DNA of 53,431 bases from NCBI GenBank assembly GCA_947626115.1, contig CANQQX010000005.1, positions 1 through 53,431 on the forward strand, written 5' to 3'. Shown here piece after piece: positions 18,930 to 38,246 of this stretch. This stretch comes from an uncultured Bacilli bacterium. Its GTDB lineage: Bacteria; Bacillota_I; Bacilli_A; RF39; UBA660. The notes under the pieces are model-generated. The model did not search any database, was not told where the DNA came from, and saw nothing but the letters and a program-made list of their open reading frames with translations. The position numbers and the translations under genes were made by a program. Within the stretch, counting starts at the first letter, position 1. Every line of letters begins with the position of its first letter.

Positions 18930-20393
18930 ATGAAAAGAATAATAATAAATAACTATAAATTTATTTTTGGTTTAATACTTGGCTTAGTAATATCTTTAAC
19001 AACAGTATATGCAATTGATGCCTATATTGAAAGTAATAAAGTAGCCTATAATAATCATAATAAAACCAATGTCGAAGAAGCCATAGATGAATTGTACGAA
19101 AAAAGTGGCATGCATAAAAATAAATGGGTAGATCCAATACTTAATGGAGCAGATCCTGTATTAAAGAGTCCATTAATACCAGTTGAAATAAAAGACAATG
19201 GTGAAGTTTATTATGCTAACGAAAATAGTGAATGGTATAATTATAAGAAAAAAAGATGGGCTAACGCAGTTATCTTAATTGATGAACCTAGTAATGCAAA
19301 TTACCAAGTTGGAGATCACATAATAGAAGATGATATCGAAAGTTACTTTGTCTGGATACCAAGATATCAATATAAAGTATGGGATTTAGGAAAATATTCA
19401 AATGCGATAGCAGTTTCAAACATGAAAGATGTTCAAGATCAAAATGATACATCTTACTATAAATTGTTTGTTAACTATAGAACAATAGATATAAGATTTG
19501 GTACATATGATAAATATCCAAAGATGGCAGAACCAACATCAACAGGAGTATATTACACTCATCCAGCCTTTACTTTAGGAAATAAAGATTTAAATGGTAT
19601 CTGGATAGGGAAATTTGAAACAGGTGGAACAAATGCAGCAGATATTATTATTAAACCAAATGTAACGTCATGGCGAAATGAAACAGTAAGGACCTTTTTT
19701 GATGCTGCAAAACAATATAAAAGAGATTTAGATAGTCATATGATAAAGAATACAGAATGGGGAGCAGTAGCTTATTTATCACATTCTGCTTATGGTATTA
19801 ATACAGCAGTAAATATAAATAATGCTAAAGATAATATAACAGGTTATGCTGCTGCTCCAGGTACTAATCAAACTAAAATTCCGGGAGAAAATGGATCAAT
19901 TACTGACCCACAAGTAACTCAACCTTATAATACTGAAGCAGGTTATTTAGCCAGTACAACAGGCAATATTACCGGAGTATATGATATGAGTGGTGGAGCA
20001 CATGAATATGTAGCTAGTTGTTTAGAAAATACCTGGAATATAAGTGCAAGTGATTTTACTCTTGATTTACTAAATACTGAAATAGCTGCCGGATATATAG
20101 ATAAATATGCTAGTGATACTACTAATTATGCATATGATAAGCGTATTTTAGGTGATGCCATTGGAGAAATAGGCCCATATTATAATTTTATTGATAGCGA
20201 TGGTTATCCAAGAGCACATAATAGTTGGTATTATGATTATTCAATTTTTTTTGATCCTGGTCAGCCTTGGCTAACTCGTGGTATGGATTCTGGCTCTGGC
20301 ACATTAGCTAGTCAATTTGCTTTTGGCCCTAGTTCAGGCATAAAATTAAATAATGCAACTACTCGTCTTATTTTAGCACCCATAAATAATTAA
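18930..20393 (+). CDS. Surface protein with C-terminal FGE-sulfatase/CLec-like domain, paralog 1
   Basis: N-terminal signal or TM segment. FVWIPRY, WIGKFE, KNTEWGAVAYL, GVYDMSGGAHEYV, PWLTRG and terminal RLIL. Confidence 0.8.
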   Translation: MKRIIINNYKFIFGLILGLVISLTTVYAIDAYIESNKVAYNNHNKTNVEEAIDELYEKSGMHKNKWVDPILNGADPVLKSPLIPVEIKDNGEVYYANENSEWYNYKKKRWANAVILIDEPSNANYQVGDHIIEDDIESYFVWIPRYQYKVWDLGKYSNAIAVSNMKDVQDQNDTSYYKLFVNYRTIDIRFGTYDKYPKMAEPTSTGVYYTHPAFTLGNKDLNGIWIGKFETGGTNAADIIIKPNVTSWRNETVRTFFDAAKQYKRDLDSHMIKNTEWGAVAYLSHSAYGINTAVNINNAKDNITGYAAAPGTNQTKIPGENGSITDPQVTQPYNTEAGYLASTTGNITGVYDMSGGAHEYVASCLENTWNISASDFTLDLLNTEIAAGYIDKYASDTTNYAYDKRILGDAIGEIGPYYNFIDSDGYPRAHNSWYYDYSIFFDPGQPWLTRGMDSGSGTLASQFAFGPSSGIKLNNATTRLILAPINN

Positions 20394-20416
20394 AGATAAT
20401 AAGGAGATTATTATAA

Positions 20417-21901
20417 ATGAAGAGAATAAATAATAAATGTATATTTATACTTGGTATATTAATAGGCGTTGTATTATCAGTAACAACAGTATATGCAGTA
20501 GATGCTTATATCGAAAGTAATAAAGTTGCCTATAATAATCATAATAAAAATAATGTTGAAGAAGCAATAGATGAATTATACGAAAAAAGTGGTATGCATA
20601 AAGATAAATGGGTAGATCCAATACTTAATGGAGCGGATCCTGTATTAAAAGATCCATTAATACCAGTTGAAATAAAACCTAATGGAGATGTATATTATGC
20701 TAACTTAAATAGTGAATGGTATAACTATAGTGAAAAAAGATGGGCCAATGCAATTATATTAGTAGATAGTCCCAGTAATACAAATTATAAAGTTGGAGAT
20801 CATATTCTAGAGAGTGATATTGAAAGTTATTTTGTGTGGATTCCAAGATATCAATATAAAGTATGGGATTTAGGAAAATATATCAGTGCTCCAGATGGAA
20901 GTACATTAGTAAATGGAAGTTATGCAACATCAACAACCCAAGCAATGAATAAATCAAGAATAATCGATATCCAATTTGGAACACCAAATAATATACCCAA
21001 AATGACAGAGCCAAGTACAACAGGAGTATATTATACTCATCCAGCCTTTACTTTAGGAAATAAAGATTTAAATGGTATCTGGGTAGGCAAATTTGAAACC
21101 GGATATAAAGGAGCAGATAGCACTACTAGTGCACAAGTAAATAGAGAAGATTCTACAAATGTAATAGTAAAACCAAATGTTCATTCGTGGCGATATAATT
21201 CTATTAAAAATATGTTCATGACATCATTTAATTATGAAAGAAATTTAGATAGTCATATGATGAAGAATACGGAATGGGGAGCGGTAGCATATTTATCTCA
21301 TTCACAATATGGTCTTGGCAATGAAGTAGAAATAAACAATACTAGTGATTATATGACTGGTTATGTAGCAGCCCCAAATACAAATCAAAGTACTCGTTTA
21401 GGTACTTATGTAGAAAGCAATGATAAAACCCAAACTCAACCATGGAATACACCAACTGGTCATTTAGGAAGTACAACCGGCAATATTAGTGGAGTATATG
21501 ATATGAGTGGTGGATCATGGGAATTAGTAGCGGGATGTATGGAAGGCCTAGTAGGTGATAGTGGCTTTGACACTTCAACTTTAGCAACTGAAATGGCTAA
21601 TGGCTATATTGATAAGTATCCCAATGTTAGTACTGAAACATCTTATAATAATAGAATTCTAGGGGATGCCACTGGAGAATTAGGCCCCTTTTATAGTTTT
21701 TATATTGGTGTAGGAACTAATTCTCATCATAATAGTTGGTATGGTGATGGAAATTACTTTGTTGAACCAAATAGACCTTGGTTTTCTCGTGGTAATGGCT
21801 TTAATGATGGTGCAGAAGCTGGGCAATTTGCAGCTTTTATTGGTAATGGTGGATTAAGTTATTCTACTTCTTTTCGCCTAGTTCTTACTCCAATTAAATA
21901 A
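20417..21901 (+). CDS. Surface protein with C-terminal FGE-sulfatase/CLec-like domain, paralog 2
   Basis: Same motifs (GVYDMSGGSWE, PWFSRG, SFRLVL). RBS AAGGAG. Confidence 0.8.
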   Translation: MKRINNKCIFILGILIGVVLSVTTVYAVDAYIESNKVAYNNHNKNNVEEAIDELYEKSGMHKDKWVDPILNGADPVLKDPLIPVEIKPNGDVYYANLNSEWYNYSEKRWANAIILVDSPSNTNYKVGDHILESDIESYFVWIPRYQYKVWDLGKYISAPDGSTLVNGSYATSTTQAMNKSRIIDIQFGTPNNIPKMTEPSTTGVYYTHPAFTLGNKDLNGIWVGKFETGYKGADSTTSAQVNREDSTNVIVKPNVHSWRYNSIKNMFMTSFNYERNLDSHMMKNTEWGAVAYLSHSQYGLGNEVEINNTSDYMTGYVAAPNTNQSTRLGTYVESNDKTQTQPWNTPTGHLGSTTGNISGVYDMSGGSWELVAGCMEGLVGDSGFDTSTLATEMANGYIDKYPNVSTETSYNNRILGDATGELGPFYSFYIGVGTNSHHNSWYGDGNYFVEPNRPWFSRGNGFNDGAEAGQFAAFIGNGGLSYSTSFRLVLTPIK

Positions 21902-21902
21902 T

Positions 21903-21931
21903 TTGACATAATGTAATACGTATGCTATAAT
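21903..21931 (+). promoter_or_regulatory. Consensus sigma-A promoter
   Basis: TTGACA-17-TATAAT with extended TG. Confidence 0.85.
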
Positions 21932-21961
21932 AAATCTCCTTTAAGAAAAGGGGATTTTATT

Positions 21962-22609
21962 ATGAAAAATGAAAAAATTAATTATTATTTAGTATTAGAA
22001 AAACGTTTGGGTGATTATAATATTATTGATATTAATAGACTTGATATTGCTGATCATGAAATACCTAGCGATATTCTTAGTATTGATTTTTTTACATGTG
22101 AATTTACCGAAGGAGAAATAAGAGAATCAATTATAAGAAGTAATATGGCTCGTCCTGAATATTTAGATGGAAGACTTAGAATTATTAGTGATGCTCGACA
22201 TAAACATAATTTAACAGTTTTAACTAAAGAAATACACCAAAATATTATGGAATTTCAAATTAGTGAAGAAGAAATAGATCAAAATTTTAAAAACAAATTA
22301 TTTGGAGCTTATAAAAAGATAGTAGAAAGTAGTTTTAATGATCCTGACTTTATTAAAAGAATGCTTGAAAGATTTAAAAGTGCTTTAAAAAATGGCTTTA
22401 AAAAGGATATATTTAAATTAATTGAAGAACTTCCTTATTCAAAGAGTAGAAATATTTATATTAGTATCTATAAAATGCTTAATAAAGAGCAAATAATTGA
22501 TGAAACAAAAGAAGATAAAGAAAAAGATTTTATTAATCATAGTACTTATAGAGCTAATTATAATAATCAAAATAAAAGAATATTAGAAAAATTAAATGAT
22601 GTTGCATAG
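21962..22609 (+). CDS. Hypothetical protein
   Basis: 215-aa ORF with consensus promoter and RBS. Confidence 0.8.
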   Translation: MKNEKINYYLVLEKRLGDYNIIDINRLDIADHEIPSDILSIDFFTCEFTEGEIRESIIRSNMARPEYLDGRLRIISDARHKHNLTVLTKEIHQNIMEFQISEEEIDQNFKNKLFGAYKKIVESSFNDPDFIKRMLERFKSALKNGFKKDIFKLIEELPYSKSRNIYISIYKMLNKEQIIDETKEDKEKDFINHSTYRANYNNQNKRILEKLNDVA

Positions 22610-22641
22610 TCATTTAATTTTTTTTGTAGTATAATTTAGTT

Positions 22642-23538
22642 ATGAAGATAGAAGAAGCTAAACAAAAATTTTTAGAATATATTGAAAAAGAATTAAATTA
22701 TACTAAAATGACTATAATTGATTATCAAGAAGATTTAGAGTTATTTACTAAATATATAAATAATAATAATTTAAATTATTTAAATTTAACTAAAAATGAT
22801 ATAATTGATTATTTAAAATATTTAGATGAAAAAAAATATAGCAATAAATCTATATCAAGATTTTTAAGTAGTTTGAGACATTTTTATACTTATTTAGTAG
22901 AAATTAAATTAATTGAAGAAAATATTTTTAAAAGAATTAGAAATCCCAAAATTGAAAAGAAATTACCAAATTATTTAAATATTGTAGAAGTAGAAAATCT
23001 TTTGAATATTTTAAAAGAAGATACGAAAGAAGATATTAGAAATAAATGTCTAATAGAGCTTTTATATTCAACAGGAATAAGAGTTAGTGAAGCAAGTAAT
23101 ATTAAAATAGATGATATTGATATGCATAATATGTCTATAAGAGTATTTGGAAAAGGAAGAAAAGAGAGAATTGCTTATTTTGGTGAGTCTTTAAAAGAAA
23201 TTTTAGAAAAATATTTAAAAGTAAGGAAAGATTTTTTAAAAAATGGGGAAATTGATTATTTATTTATTAATAGTATTGGTGGTAAGTTATCAAGAAATAG
23301 TATGGAAAATATTTTTATTAAAATATCCCAAATGAAAGAAATAGAACATAAATTATCTCCCCATACTTTAAGACACACTTATGCCACTCATTTACTTAAT
23401 AATGGGGCTGATTTAAGAAGTGTGCAAGAATTACTAGGTCATGAAAATTTAAATACAACCGAAATATATACCCATGTTAGTAATGAAAGATTAAGACAAG
23501 AATATTTAAAATATCATCCCGATAAAAATCGTCAATAA
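22642..23538 (+). CDS. xerC: Tyrosine recombinase XerC/XerD family
   Basis: SAM-like N-domain, TGIRVSE, GKGRKER, HTLRHTYATH, VQELLGH and TEIYTH. Confidence 0.88.
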   Translation: MKIEEAKQKFLEYIEKELNYTKMTIIDYQEDLELFTKYINNNNLNYLNLTKNDIIDYLKYLDEKKYSNKSISRFLSSLRHFYTYLVEIKLIEENIFKRIRNPKIEKKLPNYLNIVEVENLLNILKEDTKEDIRNKCLIELLYSTGIRVSEASNIKIDDIDMHNMSIRVFGKGRKERIAYFGESLKEILEKYLKVRKDFLKNGEIDYLFINSIGGKLSRNSMENIFIKISQMKEIEHKLSPHTLRHTYATHLLNNGADLRSVQELLGHENLNTTEIYTHVSNERLRQEYLKYHPDKNRQ

Positions 23539-23613
23539 AGAGTCTAAAAAAGATAAGTTTTTGCAAATAAACTTATTTTTTTATGTTAAAATAAAAATTA
23601 GGAGGATTTTATT

Positions 23614-26253
23614 ATGGCAAAAAAATATGTCTATATGTTTAAAGAAGGTAATAAAGACATGCGTGAAATCCTTGGTGGTAAAGGGGCTAATTTAGCCGAA
23701 ATGACTAATTTAGGTATGCCTATTCCGCAAGGTTTTACCGTATCTACAGAAGCATGTGTTGATTATTATCAAAATAACAAAGTAATTCGAGATGAAATTA
23801 TTAAAGAAATTGAAGAATCGCTAAAAAAATTAGAAGAATTAGCAGGAAAGAAGTTTGGCGATAAAGAACGCCCTTTACTTGTATCAGTAAGAAGTGGTGC
23901 TAGAGCTTCTATGCCTGGTATGATGGATACTATCCTTAATTTAGGTTTAAATGATGAATCAGTCGAAGGCTTTGCTAAATCTAGTAATAATCCTAGATTT
24001 GCTTATGATTCTTACAGAAGATTTATTCAAATGTATTCTGATGTAGTAATGGAAGTACCTAAATCATACTTTGAAAAAATTATTGATGAGGTAAAAAGTG
24101 AAAAAGGCATTACTTATGATAATGAACTTACTACAGAAGATTTACAAGAATTAGTTAAGAGATTTAAAAAAGTTTATAGTGAAAATATGCATGGTGAAGA
24201 GTTCCCACAAGATGTTCATACGCAATTAATCGGGGCAGTTGAAGCAGTATTCCGTTCGTGGGATAATCCAAGAGCTATCGTTTATCGTAGAATGAATGAT
24301 ATTCCAGGTGATTGGGGAACTGCGGTTAATATTCAAGCCATGGTATTTGGTAATATGGGTGATACTTCAGGTACTGGTGTTGCATTTACGAGAAATCCAG
24401 CAACTGGGGAAAAAGGTATTTATGGTGAATATTTAATTAATGCTCAAGGTGAAGATGTTGTAGCTGGTGTTAGAACGCCAGAGCCTATTACAAAACTTCA
24501 AGAAGATTTACCAGAATGCTATAAAGAGTTTATGGACCTTGCTCAAAAACTAGAAGATCATTATCGTGATATGCAAGATATGGAATTTACAATTGAAAAT
24601 GGTAAATTATATTTCTTACAAACCAGAAATGGTAAAAGAACAGCGCATGCCGCTATTAAAATTGCTTGTGATTTAGTTGATGAAGGAATGATTAAAGAAG
24701 AAGAAGCGGTTTTAAGAATTGAAGCTAAAAGTTTAGATCAATTATTACATCCAACATTTGTAAAAGAAGCTTTAGATAAGGCCGAAGCAATTGGTGAAGG
24801 TTTACCGGCATCTCCGGGTGCTGCTTCTGGTAAAGTAGTATTTACGGCGGAAGATGCTAAAAGACTTGGTAAAGGTGGAAAGGGCGAAAGAGTTGTTTTA
24901 GTTCGTCTTGAAACTACACCGGAAGATATTGAAGGAATGGTCGCAAGTCAAGGTATCTTAACTGTTCGTGGAGGTAGAACTAGTCATGCGGCCGTTGTTG
25001 CTCGTGGTATGGGTACTTGTTGTGTCGCTGGATGCGGCGCTATTAAAATTGATGAAGAAGAGAAACATTTTGAACTTGGTGGCGTTACTTTCCATGAAGG
25101 TGATTATATTTCTCTAGATGGTAATACTGGTAAAATCTATAAGGGTGATATTGAAACCAAAGAAGCCGAAGTTGCTGGTGATTTTGGTCGTATTATGGCT
25201 TGGGCTGATAAATATCGTAAGCTTGGTGTTAGAACTAATGCTGATAATCCAAGAGATACTAAAAGAGCCATTGAACTTGGTGCTGAAGGTATTGGTTTAT
25301 GTCGGACAGAGCATATGTTCTTTGAAGCCGACCGTATTCCTAAAATTAGAAAAATGATTTTAGCTAATACGGTAGAAGAAAGAGAAAAAGCTTTAAATGA
25401 ACTTATTCCATTCCAAAAAGGTGATTTCAAGGCAATGTATAAGGAACTTAAAGAGCTTCCTATGACAGTTCGCTATCTTGATCCACCTTTACATGAATTC
25501 TTACCAAATACCGAAGAAGAAATTAAAGATTTAGCGAAAGATATGGGTGTATCTGTTGAAGATATCAAAAATAAATGTGCTGAACTTCATGAATTTAACC
25601 CAATGATGGGCCATCGTGGTTGTCGTCTAGCGGTCACTTATCCAGAAATAGCGAGAATGCAAACTAGAGCTTTAATGGAAGCTGCTATTGAAGTAAAAGC
25701 GGAAGATGGCTATGATATTGTTCCAGAAATAATGATTCCTTTAGTTGGCGAAGTTAAAGAATTAAAATTTGTTAAAGATATTATCGTCGAAACTACTGAA
25801 AAAGTTAAGAAAGAAAAAAATAGTGATATTAAATATCATATTGGTACCATGATTGAAATTCCAAGAGCAGCCCTTACTGCTGATAAAATTGCGGAAGAAG
25901 CAGAATTCTTCTCATTTGGTACTAATGACTTAACGCAAATGACATTTGGGTTCTCAAGAGATGATGCTGGTAAATTCTTAGATAGTTATTATCAAAATAA
26001 AATCTATGAAATTGATCCATTTGCTAAACTTGATCAAACTGGTGTTGGGATGCTTGTTCAAATGGCAGCAGAAAAAGGTAGATGCACAAGACCTGATTTA
26101 AAACTTGGTATTTGTGGCGAACATGGTGGTGAACCATCTAGTGTGGAATTCTGTCATAAAGTAGGTCTTAATTATGTGTCTTGCTCACCTTATCGTGTAC
26201 CTATTGCTAGACTTGCCGCAGCACAAGCTGCTATTAAAGAAAAAAGTAATTAA
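23614..26253 (+). CDS. ppdK: Pyruvate, phosphate dikinase
   Basis: LGGKGANLAEM, SVRSGA, GGRTSHAAVVARG and FFSFGTNDLTQ. Confidence 0.98.
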   Translation: MAKKYVYMFKEGNKDMREILGGKGANLAEMTNLGMPIPQGFTVSTEACVDYYQNNKVIRDEIIKEIEESLKKLEELAGKKFGDKERPLLVSVRSGARASMPGMMDTILNLGLNDESVEGFAKSSNNPRFAYDSYRRFIQMYSDVVMEVPKSYFEKIIDEVKSEKGITYDNELTTEDLQELVKRFKKVYSENMHGEEFPQDVHTQLIGAVEAVFRSWDNPRAIVYRRMNDIPGDWGTAVNIQAMVFGNMGDTSGTGVAFTRNPATGEKGIYGEYLINAQGEDVVAGVRTPEPITKLQEDLPECYKEFMDLAQKLEDHYRDMQDMEFTIENGKLYFLQTRNGKRTAHAAIKIACDLVDEGMIKEEEAVLRIEAKSLDQLLHPTFVKEALDKAEAIGEGLPASPGAASGKVVFTAEDAKRLGKGGKGERVVLVRLETTPEDIEGMVASQGILTVRGGRTSHAAVVARGMGTCCVAGCGAIKIDEEEKHFELGGVTFHEGDYISLDGNTGKIYKGDIETKEAEVAGDFGRIMAWADKYRKLGVRTNADNPRDTKRAIELGAEGIGLCRTEHMFFEADRIPKIRKMILANTVEEREKALNELIPFQKGDFKAMYKELKELPMTVRYLDPPLHEFLPNTEEEIKDLAKDMGVSVEDIKNKCAELHEFNPMMGHRGCRLAVTYPEIARMQTRALMEAAIEVKAEDGYDIVPEIMIPLVGEVKELKFVKDIIVETTEKVKKEKNSDIKYHIGTMIEIPRAALTADKIAEEAEFFSFGTNDLTQMTFGFSRDDAGKFLDSYYQNKIYEIDPFAKLDQTGVGMLVQMAAEKGRCTRPDLKLGICGEHGGEPSSVEFCHKVGLNYVSCSPYRVPIARLAAAQAAIKEKSN

Positions 26254-26265
26254 TTTTTATAAAAC

Positions 26266-26295
26266 AACTTCATCGTATGATGGAGTTTTCTTTTT
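26266..26295 (+). terminator. Intrinsic terminator after ppdK
   Basis: AACTTCATC-GTAT-GATGGAGTT plus T-rich tail. Confidence 0.75.
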
Positions 26296-26342
26296 AATTA
26301 TGTTATATTAAGTTAATAAATATTTTAAATGGGGTAATTACT

Positions 26343-26912
26343 ATGAAAATAAAAAGAAATTATAATTACTATTTTGATGAATATAATTCATTTAATGAAT
26401 TTCTTAAAGAGTTTTTGCGTATTATAAAGGATAAAAAAATAAAAGCATTTATTCCTACGGGTGCTTTATGGATGTTTGACAACAATAAATTTACAGATAA
26501 AATATACACTACTGATGAACCTAATTATTTAGTATTTGATGATGATACAGTATTAATTTTTAATTATAATTGGTTTAATATGATTGATATAAAAGTATCT
26601 AATTTAAGAGATTTGAGTATTTCAGAAATAAAAAATAAAAATAATTTTGAGTTTGATTGTTATGATGCAAGTATTGTTGATTATGAATTAAATAAATTTA
26701 CTGATGAATATATTATAAATCCTGCTACTGATGAAACTAGATCAGCTGGTGGAAGTTATTTTAAAGAAATAATATTTCATTTAAGTAATGAGAAAAAGCT
26801 ATGTATTTGTGCTGAAAATGCTGAAGAAGATGGATATTGTGATATATGGATGGAAAATAATAATTTAAAAGGAATATTTAATGGAGAATCGTATGAAGTA
26901 TGGTGGAAGTAA
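26343..26912 (+). CDS. Hypothetical protein
   Basis: 189-aa ORF with GGGG RBS. No recognisable motif. Confidence 0.75.
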   Translation: MKIKRNYNYYFDEYNSFNEFLKEFLRIIKDKKIKAFIPTGALWMFDNNKFTDKIYTTDEPNYLVFDDDTVLIFNYNWFNMIDIKVSNLRDLSISEIKNKNNFEFDCYDASIVDYELNKFTDEYIINPATDETRSAGGSYFKEIIFHLSNEKKLCICAENAEEDGYCDIWMENNNLKGIFNGESYEVWWK

Positions 26913-26978
26913 AGAAAATAAAAATCAAATTTTTCCTAAACTATTGCAAAATGTAAAAAATAATGTTATAGTAGAATT

Positions 26979-27211
26979 ACTTAATAATATAATAGCGATT
27001 AATAATAGTTAATCTACATTAGTTTATTAATTATTATTTCTTATCATATTTTGTTATATGAAGATGCTTTAAGAATACCTTTATAGGTCTTGTTAGTTAT
27101 TAGGTATATGATCATATGAAGAAAGAAAACTTCGAACAAGTAACTTTAAGCTAAGACTAAGCTTAGGTTAATTCCAAACTAGAAATAACGACTTGTCATC
27201 GTTATTTTTTT
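26979..27211 (+). ncRNA. Candidate ~230-nt small RNA or small-peptide transcript
   Basis: Promoter TTGCAA(26944)-17-TGtTATAGT(26972). Terminator AAATAACGA..TCGTTATTT plus T-run (27183-27211). No long ORF. Confidence 0.45.
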
Positions 27212-27326
27212 GATAAATAAAAAATAAAAAATTATAAGAGAAAATAGGAATTTATTATTGCATTGTTTAATTTTATAGAATAAAATGATTATGTGATATT
27301 TAATATTATTTTAGGAGTGATTATTT

Positions 27327-30300
27327 ATGAAAGAAAAATTTAAATACTTATTAGTATTTTTAATAACTATAATTTTATTACCAATAAGTGTTTTGGCAAA
27401 AGAATCAGTAGAGTTAAAAATTGATAAAACTGATTTAAAAGTTGGTGATGAAGTAAAAGTAACTGCGAGTGTACCAAATAAAATGGAAGCATATGCTATT
27501 ATGGCAACATTAAAGTATGACAAAAATGTTTTTCAAATAGTTAATGATAGTAATTTTACTATTAAAAATGATGAAAGTATTAAATATAGTAAAGAAACAA
27601 ATAAATTTGGTATTATTAATAAAACAGGCAAAATATCTCTAAATGACGGAGATACACTTTTTACGGTTAATTTAAAAGTTAAAGATGATGCTAATGTTGG
27701 AAATACTAATATAGCTCTAACTAATATTACTTATACTGATGGCGATAAGGTGCAAAATTTAGATACAACATCTCTTAAAATATTAGTTACAAAAGATGCC
27801 AAAGATGGCGAAATAGTACCAGCAAATAAAGAAAATGAAATAGTTGAAGATGAAGAAAATATTATTAAAACATATAATAATATTCCCCTTATAATATTTT
27901 TGGGTATATTAGATGTCATTGGGTTAATTACTATTTTAATTATTAATAATAAAAATAAAGAGAATAATGATGATAAGAAAAAGAAAACAATTTTTGCTTT
28001 AATAGCATTAGAAATTGTTTTAGCACTAATAACTATAATTCTACTTTGGTTAAATTTTAATAAAACTGATGTCAATAATGATGGTAAAAAAGATTATCAT
28101 GATGCTGAAGAAATAATTGATTATTTAATTAATATTGAAGGAACAAAAGAAAAAAATAAAACAAATACTAATAAATATGATGTCAATAATGATGGCAAAG
28201 TAGATATTGAAGATATAGGTAATACTACGGAACAAATTGAAGATAATACTAAAGTAACTTTAAAAGAATTAAAAGAAGATAATGAATATTATGTTGAAAA
28301 GGGTAAAATAACGCTTAAATTTACGGCTGAAATTACACCAAAAGAAGCTAAAATAACTAAAGTTAAAATAGATAATAAATATTACAATGTAGAATTAGTA
28401 AGTGGAGTATATATAGCTATCGTAGATAATAAAGAAGCTGGTGTACATAATTTTGTAATTGAAGAAGTTGAACTTTCTAATGGAGTGAAAAGAAAAACTA
28501 ATTTAAAAATTACTAAAGAAGTATTAAAAGATCGTCCGGTAGTAGATGATTTAAGTCATGACATTAGAACTAGTGAATTATCTTTTACTGTAAAAGATAA
28601 AGATAAAGCTTTGCAAAGTGCTAGGATAACTGTTTTTGAAGGTAATATAACCGAAGAAGATATTAAAAATAGCGCTATTCAAACAAATCCTGATGATTTT
28701 GATAATTTTAAAGTAGTTTTTGAAGAAGAATTAGATCTTACTAAAAATTCATTTACTTTTAAACCAAAATTAGATATTGGTGGAGTTTATACTATTGTTA
28801 TTACGGGTAAATATGATTTAGACAGTAAAATTGGTGATAACAATAATTATGAAGAACAATTTCTTAATAATGGTTTAAATGTTATTACTGTGGGTAAAAT
28901 TACTATTACACCAAAAAGTACCGATGAAATATTTTTAACTAAAAAAACAAATCATGATTATTTATTTGATGTTGATTTTGAACCACAAATTATTGCTCAA
29001 GATGTTAAACAAGTTTTAATTGGGGAACAATATGTTGATGTAACTTATGAAGATGGTCATCTTAAATTAGTTCTTGATGATAATAAAATTGCTGGTGCTA
29101 AAAATATTATTATTAGTGCAGTTAAATTAGAAGATGGAACTGATGTTTTGTGTCATTATGAAATTAGTTATGATGTTTTAAAAGATGAACCAACAATAGA
29201 AAACTTTGTTTATCATAAAAAAACAAATAAAATTACTTTTGCTTTAAAAGATAATGATAATGCAATTAAAGATGCCAATATCAAAATAACTAATAAAGAT
29301 AATAAAGAAGTTTTTGCGGAAAATTTAAGTTTAGATACGAAAGATTATGCTTATAATAATATCAATTTAAAAGAAGGAGATACTTATAATATCAATATAG
29401 TTGGTAATTATGATTTAGATAGTAATGTCAATAATGATGCTAATGATGGCACGGCCAAATATGAACATAATCTTACTATTTATAATGTTGAATTACAAAA
29501 TGCTAATGAAGAAGAAGTTTATTATACTGAAAAAGGGGAAGAAATAACTTTAAAATTTAAAGCAATAATAAATCCAACTAATGAAGATGCTAAAATTAGT
29601 CAAGTTACCATTGGTGATGGCGTATATGAACCACAAAAAGATGAAAATGGTATCTATAGTGTTACTATTACTGCCCCAAATAAAGCCGAAGAAAAAAAAT
29701 ATACAATTAGAAATGTAATAATGGATGATGAAGATATAGATGAAAGCTTGTCTTTAAAAGTAGATGTTTTAAAAGACGTTCCTACAATAGAAGATTTATT
29801 AATTGATGAATCAAAAAATATTCCGGTTATAAGCTTTACTATAAAAGATCCGGATAATGCTTTAGATAAAAATGCTATTGGTAATTTAGTTATAGCTAAA
29901 GATGGTGGTAAAACCGAAACAATTGCCATAGATAAAGATTTCAAGGAAATTGCCTTAGATGCATTTGCAGATGAACTTGCTGGTAGTACTTTTGATTTAG
30001 ATATTAAAGCGAATTATAGTCGTCATAACTGTGAAAATGCTAGTAAATATAAGGAAGTGGATAAAAAATTAATTGATACTAAACAATTTAAAATATATAC
30101 AGCTACTTTAACGCCAGAAAGTAATAAAAACTTTGTACCTAAAAATGAAATAGTAGAATTTAAATTAAAATCAGATATTAAACCTAATGATGGTTCTACG
30201 ATAAAATCATTTGTGCTTGAAAATAATAAAGTTGTTGATGCTAGTAAAATAAATGATGGATCATATGCAATCAATTTAGAAACATTAAATGTAGCTGGTG

Positions 30301-33300
30301 ATAAAACTTATAAAATAGAAAAAATAATTTTAGAAAATGATATTGAAATAAAAGCTACTGCTAATATTTCTGTATATGTATTAAAAGATATTCCATATGT
30401 TAACAAATTGAATTTAAATGAAGATAATGAATCGATAAGCTATGAATTACATGATCCAGATAATGCACTTACTAGTGGAACAATCACAATTACTGGAAAA
30501 GATGATCAAAATCTTACAGAAAATGTTCAAAAAAGTGGTAAAGCTACTATAAATTATAATTTTCAAGATGGTGAAAGTTATGTAGTTAAAGTTATTGGTA
30601 GTTATGATTTAGATTCTAATAAAGAAAATAAACAAAATAGTGTTGATAATAAGGAGATGTCTTTAGAATCTTTCATAGTAGGTGGCGAATATAATTTTAC
30701 TCTTACTAATGCTAGTATTACAGATGCTCTTAAACCTAATGAATATCCAATATTAACATTTAAAAGTACTAATACTAGAAGTACATTTATAAATAGAGCA
30801 GAATTAACCATTGATGGTGAAAGTAGTCAATATGAAGTTACTAAAATTGATAAAGATACATATCAAATAGAATTATCTAATGTAGATATTAATCCAGGCA
30901 AACATACAGTTACTTTAGATAAAGTTAGTATGAATAATGGGGCTAAAACATTTGAAAATACAAAAGATTATAAAGTAAACGAATTAACTTATACTGTTTT
31001 AAAAGAAGCTCCTAAAGCGGATGGATTAACACTAAGTGTAAATAAAGCTAATAAAAGTGTTGTAGCTAATTTTAGTATAATTGATTCAAATAATGCTCTT
31101 AAAAAATTAAATGTGGCTTTAGTTGATTCAACTGGTAAAATAGTTTCTACTAAAGTTCTTAATTATGCTGAATTTGCTAGTAAAGATACAATAAAAGTTG
31201 AACTTTCTTATAATGGCAATACTGATGGCAGATATACCGTAAAAGTTTTAGCAGATTATGAACTTGCTCAAAAATATTTCTATGCTAATGAATGTATTGG
31301 CGAAAATACAGTTTTAGTTTATAGTAATGATGAAATTAGAATTGATAGAATGTATGTAGTTAACGATAGAAATGTTGAACAAGTTGATGGTTTATTCCCA
31401 ACCAAGATGCAAAAGAATTATCAAATTGCGGTGGAAGTAACAATCGCTGATTCTGTTAAAGCCCGTGGTTATGGTAGAGTATCTGGAGTAACTATCAATG
31501 GCGTTAATTATCCAGCTAACCAAATAAGTGGTTATAAATCTAAAGTTTATATTAATGTTCCTGCCACTGCGGGTGTAATTGAATTAACTGCTAATCGGGT
31601 TCAACTAGCTAATGATGGTTATTATAAAATATATAATGATTATTATTCTGTACCAGAAACGACTTTAAAATTAGATGTTTTAAAAGATAAACCAAAAATA
31701 GAAAATCTAGAAATTGAAGAAGATTATGAGAAAAAAGAAGTTACCTTTAATTTTGATGTAGTATTAGATGAAACTGCTAAAAGTGATGAATTTACGGATG
31801 GAACTATTACTTTAAATGGTGTAGATAAAGATATCAAAGTAGGACCAAATAATATTACCTTTACTAATGTAGATCAAAATAAAACTTATGATTTAATATT
31901 TAAGGGAACATATGATTTAGATACTAATACCTTTGATGACATAAGTAATGAGAAAAATAAAACTGTTAAAGGTGAATTTTATCGAGTAAAATATGGTTTA
32001 TATAATGATAATACATATGAAACAATAAATATTACTGATGCCAAGCTTGTTAGTGAAAAAGGTAATAAATATTTTGAAAAAAATGAAAAAGTTAAATTAC
32101 AATTTAAAGTTTCTGGTCTTAATGAAAATTTAGGTGTATTACCTAGCAAAGTAGTTATTAAAGATGAAGAATATAATTTAACAAAATTAGATGATAATTA
32201 TTATGAATTAATAATAGATGGTTATTCTAGTTTTGGCGAAAAAGCAATAACTATTACCGATATAATTTTAGATAATAGTAAAAAAGTTACTTTAACTGAG
32301 CCATTTACCTTTAATCCTGAAGTATTAAAAGACGCTATTAAAATAAATGATTATAAGTATAAAGTTGATGATGATAATATTACAATTAATATCGATTTAG
32401 ATGATGCCGATGGTGCAATAGTAGGATTTGCTAATGTAACAGTAACTGATGAAAAAGGAAAAGAACTATATAATAATAATTATCAAAATGAAATTGTAAT
32501 TAATCGTGCAGATAAGAGTATTTTAAGATATTATGTCAAACTTACTTTAGATTATGACCGAGATATTGATAAAGGTGATGATACTGCTAACCATTATAGT
32601 GATGTTTTACTTCTTGATGAATTAATATCATTAGAGAAAAATAATATTGAATTAAAAGATATTATTGATATTAACTTATATAAATATGCTAATGATAATA
32701 ATGAAGAAAGTATCAAGAAAATTGATGAAATTTCAATTACGGAATTAAAAGATAAATTAGATTCATATTTTGTTGAAGTTGTAATGGAAAATCTGCCAGC
32801 TATTCGAACTAAAATAGTTGATGTAAAAACTGTTCAAAATCATTTGATTTTAGTTTTAGATTATGATTATGTAACTAAAGAAGGTGGAGCGAAAAACAAT
32901 TTAGAAATTGATTTTGGTGAAATAAAAGAAAATAATAAAGCTAAAAATGAATTCCACCCAGAAACTGCAATTGAATCATTAATTGCAAAATTAGAAGCAA
33001 ATGAACCAGTTACCTTAAATCAAAATTATGATTTTTCTAAAATTAAATTAGATCGTAATGTATATATTGAAAATTATTCTAGTGTATTAGATGGTAATGG
33101 TTATACTTTTAAAAACTTAAGTAAACCATTATTTGGTACTCTTACTGGTGAAGTTAAAAATTTAAATATCAATGATGTTACCTTTGATGGCAATGGCCAT
33201 GGTGCTTTAGCTAATAATACGAATGGGGCTATAATTGAATATGTTTTAGTCGATCGCGTAACAAGAACATCTACTGCTAATAATCCTAATGGTGGTTTAA

Positions 33301-36300
33301 TTGGGGTAGCAGATAATACCAAAATAAAAACTAGTCGTGTTACCAATGTACTTATAAATGCTGGTTATTATGAACAACAAAATGGTTTATTAATTGGTAA
33401 TTCAAATAATAATACTGTTGTTGAAAATTGTTATGCTGAAGGAACTATTTCTGGTGGTTATAACTATACAAGTGGATTTATAGGTAACGCTAAATCTACT
33501 ACAATGCGAAATAATTATGCTAAAGTAACTACTAGAGGTCAATCTGGTTCTGTATTTGGTTTTGCAAGTGCTTATGGTAATAACGCATCTATTTATGAAA
33601 ATAATGTAAGTATCGCAAGTAATACAAGTACAACTATGATAAGTAGTGCTAGAACTATAAATAATAACTATTTCTTCATTAATAAAGAAGCAACTAATTC
33701 AAATGGTATAACTATTATTAAAGAAGATGAAATTAATGATGATTTATTCGCAAATAGAGTTAAACTTAGTGAAGATATTTGGTATATTAAAGATGTTAAT
33801 ATAAATAATTTACCAATCTTTCAAATAGAAAAGAAATCAGTAATTAATGATAAAACAATTGAAGATTATCAAGAAAAACATGAAACATTATATAAAAATT
33901 TAATGAAATTAATGCCTTTCTTTGATGATAAAAAAATAGTAGAAACTAGTAAGAATATTCCCGAAGATAGTAATTTAGTAACTAAAACTATTAAACATAT
34001 TGTACCAGTTGATGAAAATGGTAATTTAGTTACTTATTTAACTACTGATAATCCAAAGAAAATAAAGAATATAAAAATTATATTTACTGATGGCTCTAAA
34101 GAAGAATACAAAGTTAATTATGATAAAACCTATGATATGGTAGCGTCATATAAAATTAGTGAGTTAAATATCGATTATAATTATGAGCATTATGTTATTA
34201 ATAATGATTCGCAAGTAGTAGTTAATTTAACAAATTACTTAAAAGGATTAGATTATACTAATAATTTAGATATACTAACTACTAATGCTGATTCTAGATT
34301 ATATCGTGATTTCTATAATGAAAATACTAAATATGATTTAGAAGAATTTGTCTTAAAATATTTATCTAATAGTGAATATACTAATACTTCATCAAATAGC
34401 GCAATTAATAATTATATTGAAAGTGAAGTTAAAAAAGAGCAAAAATTAGAAAAGGCTTTATATGTCTATAATTATTTAAAGAGATTCTATGATTTAGATA
34501 TTGGTGGTATGAAGTTATATGACTTTATAATGTTTAATATGAAAGGCTTTGATGAAAGTTTAACTACCGATAAAATTGTTGAATTATATTTAGGTAATGG
34601 TAGTGGGGATAATTTTAATACTAATCAAACTAATACAAGATATAATGAAGTATTAGGTAAATATACTAATTTAAATACCATACCTAAATTAGTTGAATAT
34701 TTAGTAAAAGGGTTAACTAATGCTGATTTATCAGCATGGACTCGTAGTCAAGTTAAAAGTATTTTAGTGGAAATTCCAATTGATGGACATCCAAATGTAA
34801 AATATACTTTATGGGATCATTTTATCAGTGAATCAAATGATGAGATATTAAATCAATTCTTACCAATGCTTACTTTACCAGAAGGAGCAGCTTATATAAT
34901 GTCAATGCCAGTTCAATATATAATTGGAGCGCAAAGAACATATATAGTTGATCCATCTAATCCAAGTGATGTAGAGAATTTAAAAGCGAGAATGAAAACT
35001 TATGAAACAAGAATGAAAAGATATTTTGATACTGCTTATTCAATATTAGAAGATGAAAAATTATTTAATGATATTTTAATTTATAGTGTTGATAAGAGAC
35101 TTACTAAAACAGAAACTGGTTCTGTTAGTAATACTGCTTATACAACAACTGAACCATTCCATAAAAACTTTGTCGAAGCAACTGGTTTGTGGGCGGCTGC
35201 AGCTGGAGTAAATGCTGCTGCCTGGGGTCCTCGTCTTGAATGGCAAGTAGCAGGTATTTTAGATAGTACGCTTGCTGAAGAAGGTTATAATGATACATCT
35301 CATGTTACCTTTAGAACTTGGTCACATGAATCAGCTCACCTTATTGATGCTAGATTATTCTTAAGAAATAATGGACGTCGTTTTGATGCAGGTGGCGAAG
35401 ATTATGCTGATAACTTCTTAATGCAATCATTTGATAGAAATAGTATTACAATGAATTTATCAATGATGATGGATAAAACAGCAAAAAGTGTCGAAGAAGC
35501 AACTAAAGCTAATGATGCAAAATTAGGCCCAGTAGCATCTAACCTAACACCAGAGAGAATCAATAGTCCAGAAAAGATTCATGATTTCTATCGTAAATTA
35601 TTTGAAACAGTTTATGTAATTGATTATATTGAAGCACAAGCATTCTTAAAACTTCCGGCTGATACACAAAAAGATTTAGCTATTCAAGTATCTTATCCAA
35701 ATGAAACAAAACAATTTACTAGAGTAGTTGATGAAAATGGTAAAGATACTGATCAATTTGAAGGTCCATTCTATAAAGATGATGAATTCGCTAAATATCG
35801 AGCTAGAGAAACAACTAAATATACGAGATTAAATGAATTAACTGATTTTAATACACCATTAAGAACAATGAATGATTTAATTAATAATAGAATTATGTTA
35901 TATCCTGGTGTTTATCGTTATTCATCTCGTGGTAATAATTCATATGGTGGAGAAGGAATTAATACCGTTCACTGGTATCAACCATGGAATCCAGATGGTA
36001 GACCTGATTCTTATGCTTTAAAATGGATAAGTTATGAAATGCTTGGTTGGAAGGGATATAATAATGGTTTTGTTGAATATGCAAGTAATGTTCATTATCA
36101 ACCAAATAAAATCTATTCAGATTTATCTCATCCAAAAAAAGGTACATCGACCGTAAATTATAAATCAGATAGCATGGCTTTAGCTCAAATTTCTAATAAT
36201 CGTTTCACCAACTTTAGTGATTACAAAAAATATCGCTTTAATGATATTAAAGATAAATTAGATCGCCTTGATAGTATAATTAATGTTGATGATTATATTG

Positions 36301-36554
36301 ATGCTTTTGTAGAATCGTTGCAAAAAGACGCCATTGATATTACCGAAGGAGTTCAAAGTGAACTTGATAGAGTTCCAACTTGCCCAACTGATTATTATTG
36401 TTCTCGTGGTAAATTTGCTACTTATTTATCTTATCAATATAGTACAGCATTAAGACAAGAAATATACTACAAGTTAAAAACTGAAACTAACGATTTTAGA
36501 GATGAAATTTTTAAAGATTCTACGCAACAAACTATTACTAAGTTAGCCGAATAA
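27327..36554 (+). CDS. Giant surface zinc metalloprotease (ZmpA/B/C, peptidase M26-like) with cohesin-like and dockerin-like domains
   Basis: Signal peptide, cohesin-like beta domain, two TMs, two DVNNDG Ca-binding loops, about 7 large repeats, GLUG-like motifs, and HESAH with Glu 20 residues downstream. Confidence 0.85.
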   Translation: MKEKFKYLLVFLITIILLPISVLAKESVELKIDKTDLKVGDEVKVTASVPNKMEAYAIMATLKYDKNVFQIVNDSNFTIKNDESIKYSKETNKFGIINKTGKISLNDGDTLFTVNLKVKDDANVGNTNIALTNITYTDGDKVQNLDTTSLKILVTKDAKDGEIVPANKENEIVEDEENIIKTYNNIPLIIFLGILDVIGLITILIINNKNKENNDDKKKKTIFALIALEIVLALITIILLWLNFNKTDVNNDGKKDYHDAEEIIDYLINIEGTKEKNKTNTNKYDVNNDGKVDIEDIGNTTEQIEDNTKVTLKELKEDNEYYVEKGKITLKFTAEITPKEAKITKVKIDNKYYNVELVSGVYIAIVDNKEAGVHNFVIEEVELSNGVKRKTNLKITKEVLKDRPVVDDLSHDIRTSELSFTVKDKDKALQSARITVFEGNITEEDIKNSAIQTNPDDFDNFKVVFEEELDLTKNSFTFKPKLDIGGVYTIVITGKYDLDSKIGDNNNYEEQFLNNGLNVITVGKITITPKSTDEIFLTKKTNHDYLFDVDFEPQIIAQDVKQVLIGEQYVDVTYEDGHLKLVLDDNKIAGAKNIIISAVKLEDGTDVLCHYEISYDVLKDEPTIENFVYHKKTNKITFALKDNDNAIKDANIKITNKDNKEVFAENLSLDTKDYAYNNINLKEGDTYNINIVGNYDLDSNVNNDANDGTAKYEHNLTIYNVELQNANEEEVYYTEKGEEITLKFKAIINPTNEDAKISQVTIGDGVYEPQKDENGIYSVTITAPNKAEEKKYTIRNVIMDDEDIDESLSLKVDVLKDVPTIEDLLIDESKNIPVISFTIKDPDNALDKNAIGNLVIAKDGGKTETIAIDKDFKEIALDAFADELAGSTFDLDIKANYSRHNCENASKYKEVDKKLIDTKQFKIYTATLTPESNKNFVPKNEIVEFKLKSDIKPNDGSTIKSFVLENNKVVDASKINDGSYAINLETLNVAGDKTYKIEKIILENDIEIKATANISVYVLKDIPYVNKLNLNEDNESISYELHDPDNALTSGTITITGKDDQNLTENVQKSGKATINYNFQDGESYVVKVIGSYDLDSNKENKQNSVDNKEMSLESFIVGGEYNFTLTNASITDALKPNEYPILTFKSTNTRSTFINRAELTIDGESSQYEVTKIDKDTYQIELSNVDINPGKHTVTLDKVSMNNGAKTFENTKDYKVNELTYTVLKEAPKADGLTLSVNKANKSVVANFSIIDSNNALKKLNVALVDSTGKIVSTKVLNYAEFASKDTIKVELSYNGNTDGRYTVKVLADYELAQKYFYANECIGENTVLVYSNDEIRIDRMYVVNDRNVEQVDGLFPTKMQKNYQIAVEVTIADSVKARGYGRVSGVTINGVNYPANQISGYKSKVYINVPATAGVIELTANRVQLANDGYYKIYNDYYSVPETTLKLDVLKDKPKIENLEIEEDYEKKEVTFNFDVVLDETAKSDEFTDGTITLNGVDKDIKVGPNNITFTNVDQNKTYDLIFKGTYDLDTNTFDDISNEKNKTVKGEFYRVKYGLYNDNTYETINITDAKLVSEKGNKYFEKNEKVKLQFKVSGLNENLGVLPSKVVIKDEEYNLTKLDDNYYELIIDGYSSFGEKAITITDIILDNSKKVTLTEPFTFNPEVLKDAIKINDYKYKVDDDNITINIDLDDADGAIVGFANVTVTDEKGKELYNNNYQNEIVINRADKSILRYYVKLTLDYDRDIDKGDDTANHYSDVLLLDELISLEKNNIELKDIIDINLYKYANDNNEESIKKIDEISITELKDKLDSYFVEVVMENLPAIRTKIVDVKTVQNHLILVLDYDYVTKEGGAKNNLEIDFGEIKENNKAKNEFHPETAIESLIAKLEANEPVTLNQNYDFSKIKLDRNVYIENYSSVLDGNGYTFKNLSKPLFGTLTGEVKNLNINDVTFDGNGHGALANNTNGAIIEYVLVDRVTRTSTANNPNGGLIGVADNTKIKTSRVTNVLINAGYYEQQNGLLIGNSNNNTVVENCYAEGTISGGYNYTSGFIGNAKSTTMRNNYAKVTTRGQSGSVFGFASAYGNNASIYENNVSIASNTSTTMISSARTINNNYFFINKEATNSNGITIIKEDEINDDLFANRVKLSEDIWYIKDVNINNLPIFQIEKKSVINDKTIEDYQEKHETLYKNLMKLMPFFDDKKIVETSKNIPEDSNLVTKTIKHIVPVDENGNLVTYLTTDNPKKIKNIKIIFTDGSKEEYKVNYDKTYDMVASYKISELNIDYNYEHYVINNDSQVVVNLTNYLKGLDYTNNLDILTTNADSRLYRDFYNENTKYDLEEFVLKYLSNSEYTNTSSNSAINNYIESEVKKEQKLEKALYVYNYLKRFYDLDIGGMKLYDFIMFNMKGFDESLTTDKIVELYLGNGSGDNFNTNQTNTRYNEVLGKYTNLNTIPKLVEYLVKGLTNADLSAWTRSQVKSILVEIPIDGHPNVKYTLWDHFISESNDEILNQFLPMLTLPEGAAYIMSMPVQYIIGAQRTYIVDPSNPSDVENLKARMKTYETRMKRYFDTAYSILEDEKLFNDILIYSVDKRLTKTETGSVSNTAYTTTEPFHKNFVEATGLWAAAAGVNAAAWGPRLEWQVAGILDSTLAEEGYNDTSHVTFRTWSHESAHLIDARLFLRNNGRRFDAGGEDYADNFLMQSFDRNSITMNLSMMMDKTAKSVEEATKANDAKLGPVASNLTPERINSPEKIHDFYRKLFETVYVIDYIEAQAFLKLPADTQKDLAIQVSYPNETKQFTRVVDENGKDTDQFEGPFYKDDEFAKYRARETTKYTRLNELTDFNTPLRTMNDLINNRIMLYPGVYRYSSRGNNSYGGEGINTVHWYQPWNPDGRPDSYALKWISYEMLGWKGYNNGFVEYASNVHYQPNKIYSDLSHPKKGTSTVNYKSDSMALAQISNNRFTNFSDYKKYRFNDIKDKLDRLDSIINVDDYIDAFVESLQKDAIDITEGVQSELDRVPTCPTDYYCSRGKFATYLSYQYSTALRQEIYYKLKTETNDFRDEIFKDSTQQTITKLAE

Positions 36555-36557
36555 AGC

Positions 36558-36595
36558 AAAACAGGATAATTAAAAAAATAAATTATCCTGTTTTT
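36558..36595 (+). terminator. Intrinsic terminator
   Basis: AAAACAGGATAATT / AATTATCCTGTTTT. Confidence 0.8.
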
Positions 36596-36642
36596 ATTTT
36601 CTTTTTTTAATAGCTAAATTTTTCAAAAAGATAAAAAATGTC

Positions 36643-36670
36643 TTGATTCTCGGGGGGGGTATATTATAAT
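36643..36670 (+). promoter_or_regulatory. Poly-G spacer promoter, copy 3 (G8 at 36652-36659)
   Basis: TTGATT-CTC-GGGGGGGG-TATAT-TATAAT, 16-bp spacer. Confidence 0.85.
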
Positions 36671-36756
36671 TATCTTATAATAGATAATGGTTTTATATAC
36701 ATAAATACGATATTTATGGTATAATAAAAAAGATAATAAAGAGAAAGTTATTATAG

Positions 36757-38246
36757 ATGAAGAGAGTAATAAATAATAATAATAAAATAATAATTGGTTT
36801 TATCATAGGATTACTATTTTCTATAACAACAGTATATGCAGTAGATGCCTATATTGAAAGTAATAAAGTAGCTTATACTAATCACAATAAAAATAATGTC
36901 GAAGAAGCCATAGATGAATTGTATGAAAAAAGTGGTATGCATAAAGATAAATGGGTAGATCCAATACTTAATGGAGCAGATCCTGTATTTGATAATGAAG
37001 GAAAGTTAATTCCAGTAGAAATAAAACCGAATGGTGATGTATATTATGCAAGTTTAAATAGTGAATGGTATAATTATAGTGAGAAAAGATGGGCCAATGC
37101 TGTAATATTAGTAGATAATCCAAGTAATACAAATTATCAAGTTGGAGATCACATAATAGAAGATGATATTGAAAGTTACTTTGTCTGGATACCAAGATAT
37201 CAATATAAAGTATGGGATTTAGGAAAATATAATAGTGCTCCAGATGGAAACACTTTAACAGATAAAGACTATAATTCATCAACAGCTCAAGCATTAAATA
37301 AATCAATACTAATAGATATAAAATTTGGTAACATTGACAAAGCCCTTAAAATGGTAGAGCCAAGTATAACAGGAGTATATTATACCCATCCAGCATTTAC
37401 CTTAGGAGATAAAGATTTAAATGGTTTATGGATAGGTAAATTTGAAACAGGATATAAAGGGGCAACAAGTAAAGAAACAGCTGAAGTAAATAGAGAAGAA
37501 ACTACAAGTGTCATAATAAAGCCAGATGTTTATTTGTGCGTAATATATCAGTGAAAAATATATTTATGACTTCATATAATTATGATAGAAACTTAGATAG
37601 TCATATGATAAAGAATACAGAATGGGGAGCTGCAGCTTATCTTTCCCACTCACAATATGGAATAGGAAATGAAATAAGACTTAATAACACAAGCGATTAT
37701 AAAACTGGTTATTCAGCTGCTGCCAATACTAATCAAAGTACTCGTTTAGGTACTTATGCCGAAAGTACTGATAAAACTATAACGCAACCATGGAATACGG
37801 CAACGGGCTATTTAGCGAGTACTACCGGAAATATAAGTGGTATATATGATATGTCAGGTGGTGGTTGGGAATACGTTGCTGGTTGTCTAAATGAAACAAT
37901 TGGTGCTAGTGAATTTACTATAGACGAATTAAAATACTATACTCAACTTGATTATTTAGATATATATGATAAAAATAGTTTAATTTCATCATATAATAAT
38001 AGAATATTAGGTGATGCAACAGGAGAAACGGGGCCATTTTTTAAATATAATGATGGAGATAATGGTGTAAGAACTCATAATAGTTGGTATAGTGATTGGG
38101 CCTGGTTTATTTTTGGCATCTATCCTTGGTTTGTTCGAGGTGGCGGTTACGATTCCGGTGGACTTTCTGGTGCTTTTAATTTTAGTCGTTTTGGTGGAGA
38201 AGCTTCAGAATATTTTTCATATAGAATTACTCTTGCACCAATATAA
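36757..38246 (+). pseudogene. FGE-sulfatase/CLec-like surface protein paralog 3, split by a 1-bp frameshift (or a sequencing error)
   Basis: ORFs 36757-37554 and 37536-38246 together align with paralogs 1 and 2. The conserved Trp-Arg codons TGG CGN appear as TG CGT at 37537-37541. Confidence 0.8.

Follow-up and report, generated by a model that had tools for sequence, protein, structure and literature searches.

Lectin-fold protein tips of an uncultured Bacilli genome as probable former targets of a diversity-generating retroelement

Three predicted surface proteins (genes A, B and C) encoded on contig CANQQX010000005.1 of an uncultured Bacilli bacterium (GenBank assembly GCA_947626115.1) end in C-terminal tips that are poor in adenine and differ from one another around a common scaffold. 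This raises the question of whether the tips are being rewritten, or once were, by a diversity-generating retroelement (DGR), with its template repeat (TR), reverse transcriptase (RT) and target variable regions (VRs). We conclude that the three genes are probably former DGR targets, now frozen variants and not current targets, a reading to which we give a probability of roughly 0.7; they are likely frozen leftovers because their own assembly holds no matching template. The window, meaning the whole stretch of 53,431 nucleotides (nt) that was analysed, is contig C5 of a 1.27 Mb metagenome-assembled genome (G000; 56 contigs, 93% complete), and its closest sequencing-run matches are four rabbit-gut runs from one sample. 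Comparisons draw on 42 genomes of the same genus, this one included (G0xx; Cn denotes a contig and Lnnn an individual locus examined).

Gene A, 18930..20393, forward strand: 487 amino acids (aa), with a signal-like N-terminus, an NVxxAIDELY motif (19068-19097) and a C-type lectin (CLec) head of the formylglycine-generating enzyme (FGE) type
VR-equivalent tip of gene A, 20229..20375, forward strand: 49 codons collinear with the TRs of sister species; GC content at third codon positions (GC3) 0.14
Gene B, 20417..21901, forward strand: 494 aa, in tandem with gene A and lacking its own poly-G promoter; structure model with a TaqVP-like fold
VR-equivalent tip of gene B, 21740..21886, forward strand: GC3 0.10
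Gene C, 36757..38246, forward strand: frameshift near 37536, giving open reading frames (ORFs) 36757-37554 and 37536-38246
VR-equivalent tip of gene C, 38088..38234, forward strand: GC3 0.18

DGR cassettes for this family in the same genus

Six cassettes with adenine-specific TR-VR pairs were found (G018, G011, G047, L127, L134 and L157). The cassette on G018:C18 runs in the order target, GC-rich hairpin, TR, MutS_I gene, Avd and RT, and that on G011:C3 keeps this order but carries four tandem TR units; in both, MutS_I, bAvd and RVT_1 exceed their Pfam cut-offs, while the NCBIfam Avd scores of 70.5 (G018) and 75.9 bits (G011) lie under the cut-off of 80. With a TR, a MutS-like (MSL) gene, avd and an RT beside the target, the sister cassettes are MSL-type DGRs. 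Mismatches between TR and adjacent VR fall overwhelmingly on adenines of the template:

G018: 11/34 A, 1/113 non-A
G047: 13/38 A, 3/109 non-A
L127: 17/38 A, 3/109 non-A
L134: 15/34 A, 2/113 non-A
L157: 15/34 A, 1/113 non-A
G011 (TR unit 4): 5/19 A, 1/86 non-A

Copies far from the cassette carry the same signature. One sister TR is mismatched with remote copies exclusively at adenines (12/27 A, 0/78 non-A). G018 has 16 family genes, and of the 14 VRs scored (two fetched copies were missed by the search pattern) 13 show adenine bias at p<0.05, 12 of these being remote, among 13 remote VRs scored; seven remote VRs have at most 5/78 non-A mismatches to the TR. RTs at least 61% identical to that of G018 occur in 4 of the 42 genomes (G018, G011, G012 and G047). 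Judged from these sequences, the family is a true DGR target in same-genus genomes, and the adenine-specific pairs bear out the proposal of a preliminary description of the window, made from its letters alone, that it is a DGR target family.

The GC-rich hairpin was found only beside cassette-adjacent targets: none follows genes A, B and C, and none follows the TR-matching remote copies of G018 either. In most of these G018 copies (L048-L060) an AT-rich inverted repeat follows the VR at a distance of 40-70 nt; two upstream members of tandem pairs lack it.

The four G011:C3 units (L006:5454-7400) are about 460-560 bp each, with conserved flanks and differing cores; 33 of 147 columns vary among them, and in 22 of these one or more copies carry an A. 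The 5' part of the adjacent VR matches unit 4, the 3' part unit 1. At G012:C13 (L062:7320-7800) a target VR continues into the TR 3' flank without a separate TR, followed by MSL, Avd and RT genes, an arrangement that may reflect either VR-TR fusion by deletion, a possible route of cassette decay, or assembly collapse.

Fold and adenine content of the tips

Genes A, B and C are three of the 17 full-length copies that their genome holds of a family of putatively secreted binding proteins, and the family recurs at E 1e-30 in 11 of the 42 genomes, this one included; a protein search with it gave 7580 matches among 7999 candidates scored. A structure model of the mature gene B protein (predicted local distance difference test score 89, from an alignment of 87 sequences) found TaqVP of Thermus aquaticus (PDB 5vf4) as its best Foldseek match (E 8.6e-10). 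Re-scoring, confined to the matches that Foldseek returned, gave Z 21.2 for TaqVP (root-mean-square deviation 3.4, 253 aligned residues, 20% identity), with TvpA next (Z 12.6), then PvdO, Mtd and FGE. The FGE-type C-type-lectin fold that had been proposed is thus supported by the gene B prediction, and the modelling places genes A, B and C in a DGR variable-protein family (FGE-type CLec, TaqVP-like). The motif YDMSGG lies at 19980 in gene A, 21497 in gene B and 37845 in gene C, and the Pfam family FGE-sulfatase scores below threshold (16-22 against 23.3 bits). Formylglycine-generating enzyme itself was rejected as an identity: its catalytic cysteines lie in the C-terminal segment (PMC6328139), and conserved Cys is absent from that segment of the 17-way alignment. 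An adhesin role is suggested by the predicted fold and the N-terminal signal; the signal-peptide look of the family N-termini was judged by eye.

In-frame blocks of 168 nt from 20217, 21728 and 38076 align without indels, contain 25.0, 23.8 and 20.2% A, and share 18 of 56 residues, giving the HNSWY-type scaffold; this confirms what the preliminary description had noted. Pairwise, the tips are identical at 22-23 of 56 residues, and third codon positions do differ as had been noted, with only 55-57% identity. When the ends of 790 ORFs of 200 aa or more, some of them antisense, are ranked by A content, all 17 family ends fall among the lowest 32. The bodies of the three genes contain 38-42% A, below the figure of about 45% that had served as the 5' reference, and most of the drop in the tips is compositional, because amino-acid composition and genome codon usage already predict 29, 27 and 23% A. 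A synonymous deficit nonetheless persists beyond composition: the A:T ratio at four-fold sites, 35167:47667 over the whole genome, is 16:45 in the three tips against 171:121 in the bodies of the same genes, and 90:249 in tips against 1150:722 in bodies across the 17 genes, although part of the contrast for the three genes arises because the bodies are themselves A-rich. Of the DGR-type adenine loss proposed earlier, what stands is this residue at four-fold sites, composition explaining most of the depletion without explaining it fully. The placing of variability in the tip likewise needs qualification, since in the 17-copy alignment the tips are variable but two body windows are equally so (identity 0.33 and 0.37, against 0.45 and 0.38). 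A-poor lectin-fold tips are by themselves no proof of DGR activity.

Search for a template and reverse transcriptase in the same assembly

The window had been described as lacking an RT, template repeat and hairpin, which agrees with the missing hairpins noted above and, as regards the RT, with a Pfam scan of 40 window ORFs (53 are listed) that found none; NCBIfam and PHROGs assigned no family to window proteins. A search of the genome for an RT and repeat had been proposed, and we find no family TR or cognate RT in this assembly, both being present in same-genus relatives. A blastn search of the three tips over the genome found no TR for genes A, B and C; searches with the DNA of sister TR units and with a degenerate pattern gave 0 matches; an adenine-tolerant scan of all 17 tips found nothing, its best non-self candidate having 27% non-A mismatch; and no fragments of a sister-type TR, Avd or MutS-like gene were found in the 93%-complete assembly. 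The RT matches are three, one on C10 and two halves of one DGR RT on C21, so that no intact cognate RT with Avd was found in the assembly, only the split RT of another DGR and the C10 RT.

The C10 RT is group II intron-like (L005:7198-9243, G000:C10:29197-31242; 681 aa, with an extra C-terminal DUF7662 domain), and its neighbours are an exonuclease III-like gene and a helix-turn-helix gene. The C21 DGR (L004:1-6062) comprises a TR fragment truncated on its 5' side, genes resembling MutS_I and Avd, and the RT, which is broken in two by a RIT-like element that has three integrases and inverted ends. The TR fragment matches a second target family, with GVRP-ending proteins, and the hairpin-bearing target of this DGR lies apart on C49, before ruvA. 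The RT is about 90% identical to that of G011:C43, an uninterrupted 377-aa RT falls in the same 90% cluster, and the break looks recent because the VRs of this DGR are still GC-rich. A third target family lies on C14, C11, C13, C42, C9 and C32 (also L075); its G011 homolog has a DUF6273 match and its cassette is on G011:C28, and no separate RT for it was found in our assembly.

Decayed codons and frozen tips

Fresh G018 VRs have GC3 of 0.57-0.65, dropping to 0.18 as non-A mismatches accumulate (rho -0.65, p 0.012, n 14), and 46 of 86 non-A changes in G018 VRs are C>T or G>A. All 17 tips of the window's genome have GC3 of 0.10-0.35, those of genes A, B and C (0.14, 0.10 and 0.18) resembling their bodies, while tips of the second target family of the same genome, an internal control, are GC-rich (0.50-0.72 in 9 of 10 listed). 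By their codon content, then, the window tips are decayed, having lost the GC-rich codons of fresh targets, and this codon clock (GC3 0.6 to 0.1) would date the loss of targeting.

A trace of the template pattern survives. Across the 17 copies, variability is highest at the codons that read AAY in sister TRs (entropy 2.98, n 12, against 1.11, n 26; p 1.5e-6). When the three window tips are pooled, mismatches to the G018 TR at codon positions 1-2 fall on 62 of 96 A (65%) and 70 of 198 non-A positions (35%). The mark of an active target, a VR that differs from its TR almost only at adenines, is absent from the window tips.

Allelic comparison likewise concerns family members at large: a look-up of ten family proteins in the protein collection yielded eight allelic variants of six paralogs, with 63 differences, 1 of them in the last 55 residues. 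Sequencing runs were compared as contigs; two pieces of run X1, which may be the source sample, cross the end of gene A with 0 differences, and matching of run contigs at 80% likeness mostly recovered paralogs and relatives, which is uninformative on tip variation. One tip is shared with G016, where it occupies the gene C locus; the two versions are separated by 10 synonymous and 3 non-synonymous codon changes, the whole proteins being 79% identical. Bodies appear more mobile. Genes A and B stand directly after tsf, where G011 too has a family member and G016 has none; two copies in the window's genome share 1157 identical nt of body and have different tips; and gene B has a 167-nt tract identical to paralog C6-39116. 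Such tracts fit gene conversion between copies.

The preliminary description had spoken of remote or former targets of a DGR encoded elsewhere. The former status is supported, but present targeting from elsewhere in the genome is not, given the missing TR and cognate RT, the decayed tips and paralog alleles that do not vary at the tip.

Proposed history and alternative explanations

We propose that an MSL-type chromosomal DGR would have acted in trans, writing mutagenised cDNA of its TR into a large number of dispersed copies, and that its cassette was then lost or no longer matched. The GC-rich third positions would have decayed by C>T and G>A, leaving the tips T-rich and A-poor; distinct tips would have been kept by selection, and bodies would still be swapped between copies by gene conversion. 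Several observations weigh against this history. The assembly is incomplete (93%, 56 contigs). G011 has a fresh VR only at its cassette (GC3 0.57) and six remote copies scored at 0.06-0.41, so that a decayed remote set of this kind whose cassette contig had been lost would look like the present genome; in G013 the VRs of the 3 copies fetched look fresh (GC3 0.53-0.57), although the assembly contains no RT. Taken singly, the window tips show weak adenine bias against the G018 TR (p 0.02, 0.07 and 0.2) and differ from it at 55-60 of 113 non-A positions, about 50%. TR adenines mark exposed surface loops, and selection on the binding face could therefore yield the same site pattern. Genes A and B have no allelic variant to compare (1 member on 3 contigs each), the other assemblies that supply alleles may not be independent, 9 synonymous and 8 non-synonymous changes separate a second pair of tips from different species, and the 1157-nt identity could be an assembly artefact.

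The incompleteness of the assembly and the patterns in G011 and G013 are what would be expected if a cassette were present but unassembled, rewriting one adjacent copy, with the window genes as old non-matching remote copies. We regard this as unlikely: the 17 copies are all full length and no contig breaks off inside a family copy, the position after spoVAE, occupied by the cassette in G011, leads into an unrelated gene in our genome, and no piece of a cassette TR, Avd or MutS-like gene was found; even if it were so, the window genes would still not be current targets. That the genes were never rewritten at all, and are ordinary lectin-fold paralogs diversified by point mutation, recombination and diversifying selection acting on the binding face, with low A content as a matter of composition, would sit well with the adenine loss that composition predicts, with body segments matching the tip in variability, with differing third positions and with the weak single-gene tests. 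It would leave unaccounted for the A-poor, T-rich four-fold sites of the tips across the 17 genes, the indel-free register of tips and TR, and the continuous series from fresh to decayed VRs inside G018 and G011.

Phylogeny speaks against the same explanation. In a quick tree of 53 of the 67 genes, those long enough, the 11 full-length copies of G018 form one clade (Shimodaira-Hasegawa-like approximate likelihood ratio test support 100), but the copies of the window's genome interleave with those of G016 and of G011, the G011 cassette target included; we hold a history without rewriting to be rather improbable. Active targeting by the C21 DGR is hardly credible: that locus does hold a TR fragment, MutS_I-like and Avd-like genes and an RT, but its template is truncated and matches the GVRP-ending family instead, its RT is interrupted by the three-integrase insertion, and the C10 RT is of the group II intron-like kind. 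We therefore rejected C21 as the source of the window tips.

Promoters and display

Genes A and C are preceded by a homopolymer between -35 and -10 boxes, in each case a G8 run in a 16-nt spacer.

Gene A promoter-like site, 18818..18845, forward strand: -35 box, 16-nt spacer with the G8 run (18827-18834), -10 box
Gene C promoter-like site, 36643..36670, forward strand: G8 run (36652-36659) inside the spacer

Family-wide, 13 of the 17 genes follow a G7-G8 run in a promoter spacer, and genome-wide there are 54 C-G7+ promoter sites, nearly all before proteins with a signal-like N-terminus. Poly-G length ranges over G7-G9 (37 G8, 4 G7 and 4 G9), a variation between loci and not at one locus. These sequences make phase-variable expression from the tracts plausible: since G8 gives a 16-nt spacer, G9 would be optimal, and slippage of G8, lengthening the spacer from 16 to 17 nt, would turn on individual copies. 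For gene A, a further promoter-like site lies downstream of the tract and could bypass it. The genome contains 57 G/C runs of at least 7, almost all in a promoter-like context, and a third G8 promoter of the window (8870-8877) precedes a 503-aa DUF285 protein.

Once expressed, the heads are predicted to bind ligands at the cell surface. The NVxxAIDELY motif occurs in 18 ORFs, at the N-termini of the 17 heads and at the C-terminus of one 172-aa protein on C8, homologs of which immediately precede heads in G018, G013, G044 and the G011 cassette. We hypothesise that this protein is a candidate docking adaptor, on which, as a small membrane-anchored partner sharing the motif, the heads would putatively dock, the weakest step of the proposed scheme. 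An atlas search with the putative adaptor gave no usable match. The protein (L179:1050-1565, G000:C8) is single-copy, with a hydrophobic N-terminus, a cysteine-containing domain common to 1243 protein clusters and the C-terminal sequence NVQCALDELY.

Relation to known systems

Orphan DGR targets are already known from Treponema denticola, isolates of which lack RT and TR but retain "target genes" read as leftovers (PMC4891356), and three such genes alone would mean little. That system (TvpA) resembles ours in being a chromosomal DGR with dispersed FGE-type CLec surface-protein targets and orphan targets after core loss. It differs in that its orphan VRs depart from a known TR mostly at adenines, where non-A mismatch here is about 50%; in copy number, with 17 copies here and 6 in the example given there; and in the Gram-positive host, signal-peptide-like N-terminus and poly-G promoters found here. 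TaqVP shares the FGE-subtype CLec fold and C-terminal VR (PMC6328139), but is a 381-aa monomer, prophage-encoded and treated as a class (bioRxiv 10.1101/2024.11.15.621889), whereas the present family is chromosomal and multi-copy and adds a signal-like N-terminus and an extra helical motif.

MSL genes and non-adjacent targets were catalogued by Wu et al. (2018, PMC5758913), in whose survey remote targets are a trait of non-phage DGRs. The sister cassettes, with MSL, Avd and RT, are like its MSL-containing DGRs. No DGR of that survey exceeded seven non-adjacent targets, whereas of 13 remote copies scored in G018, 12 are adenine-biased and 7 near-perfect, and G011 differs from the DGRs described there in its four TR units. 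DGRs with more than one TR are mentioned in PMC6642488. DGR action in trans is discussed in PMC10907252. Cyanobacterial DGRs (PMC7517822) likewise have dispersed paralogs with graded TR similarity, some under the target threshold, but their targets are mostly cytosolic and fused to kinase or peptidase domains, unlike the window family. Our literature search found no paper on DGRs in the lineage of this genome, though supplementary tables of DGR surveys, which lay outside the search, may list elements; on several-template DGRs, and on DGRs with phase variation, nothing on this system was among the matches listed.

The value of the locus lies in the comparative series: within one genus, copies of a single target family are fresh, decaying or orphaned, which makes testable the fate of DGR products after element loss and any need that remote targets may have for the GC-rich hairpin. 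Much more tentatively, and as a speculation that we favour less than its opposite, the series may outline a DGR life cycle in small-genome gut Bacilli. A mobile MSL-type DGR would seed at least 12 dispersed lectin-fold heads in trans and be lost; the tips, under purifying selection, would form an antigen archive, poly-G-switched, shuffled by conversion and displayed on one shared NVxxAIDELY adaptor. The window's genome would then be the end state for three families, and G018 (young, active) and G011 (four templates) earlier states.

Other features of the window

Gene C is, from its frameshift, a probable pseudogene; its truncated 265-aa product is found on 4 contigs of the protein collection. 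Upstream of it, at 27327-36554, lies an ORF of 3075 aa with a dockerin match and a weak likeness, far under the cut-off, to the zinc metalloproteases ZmpA/ZmpC.

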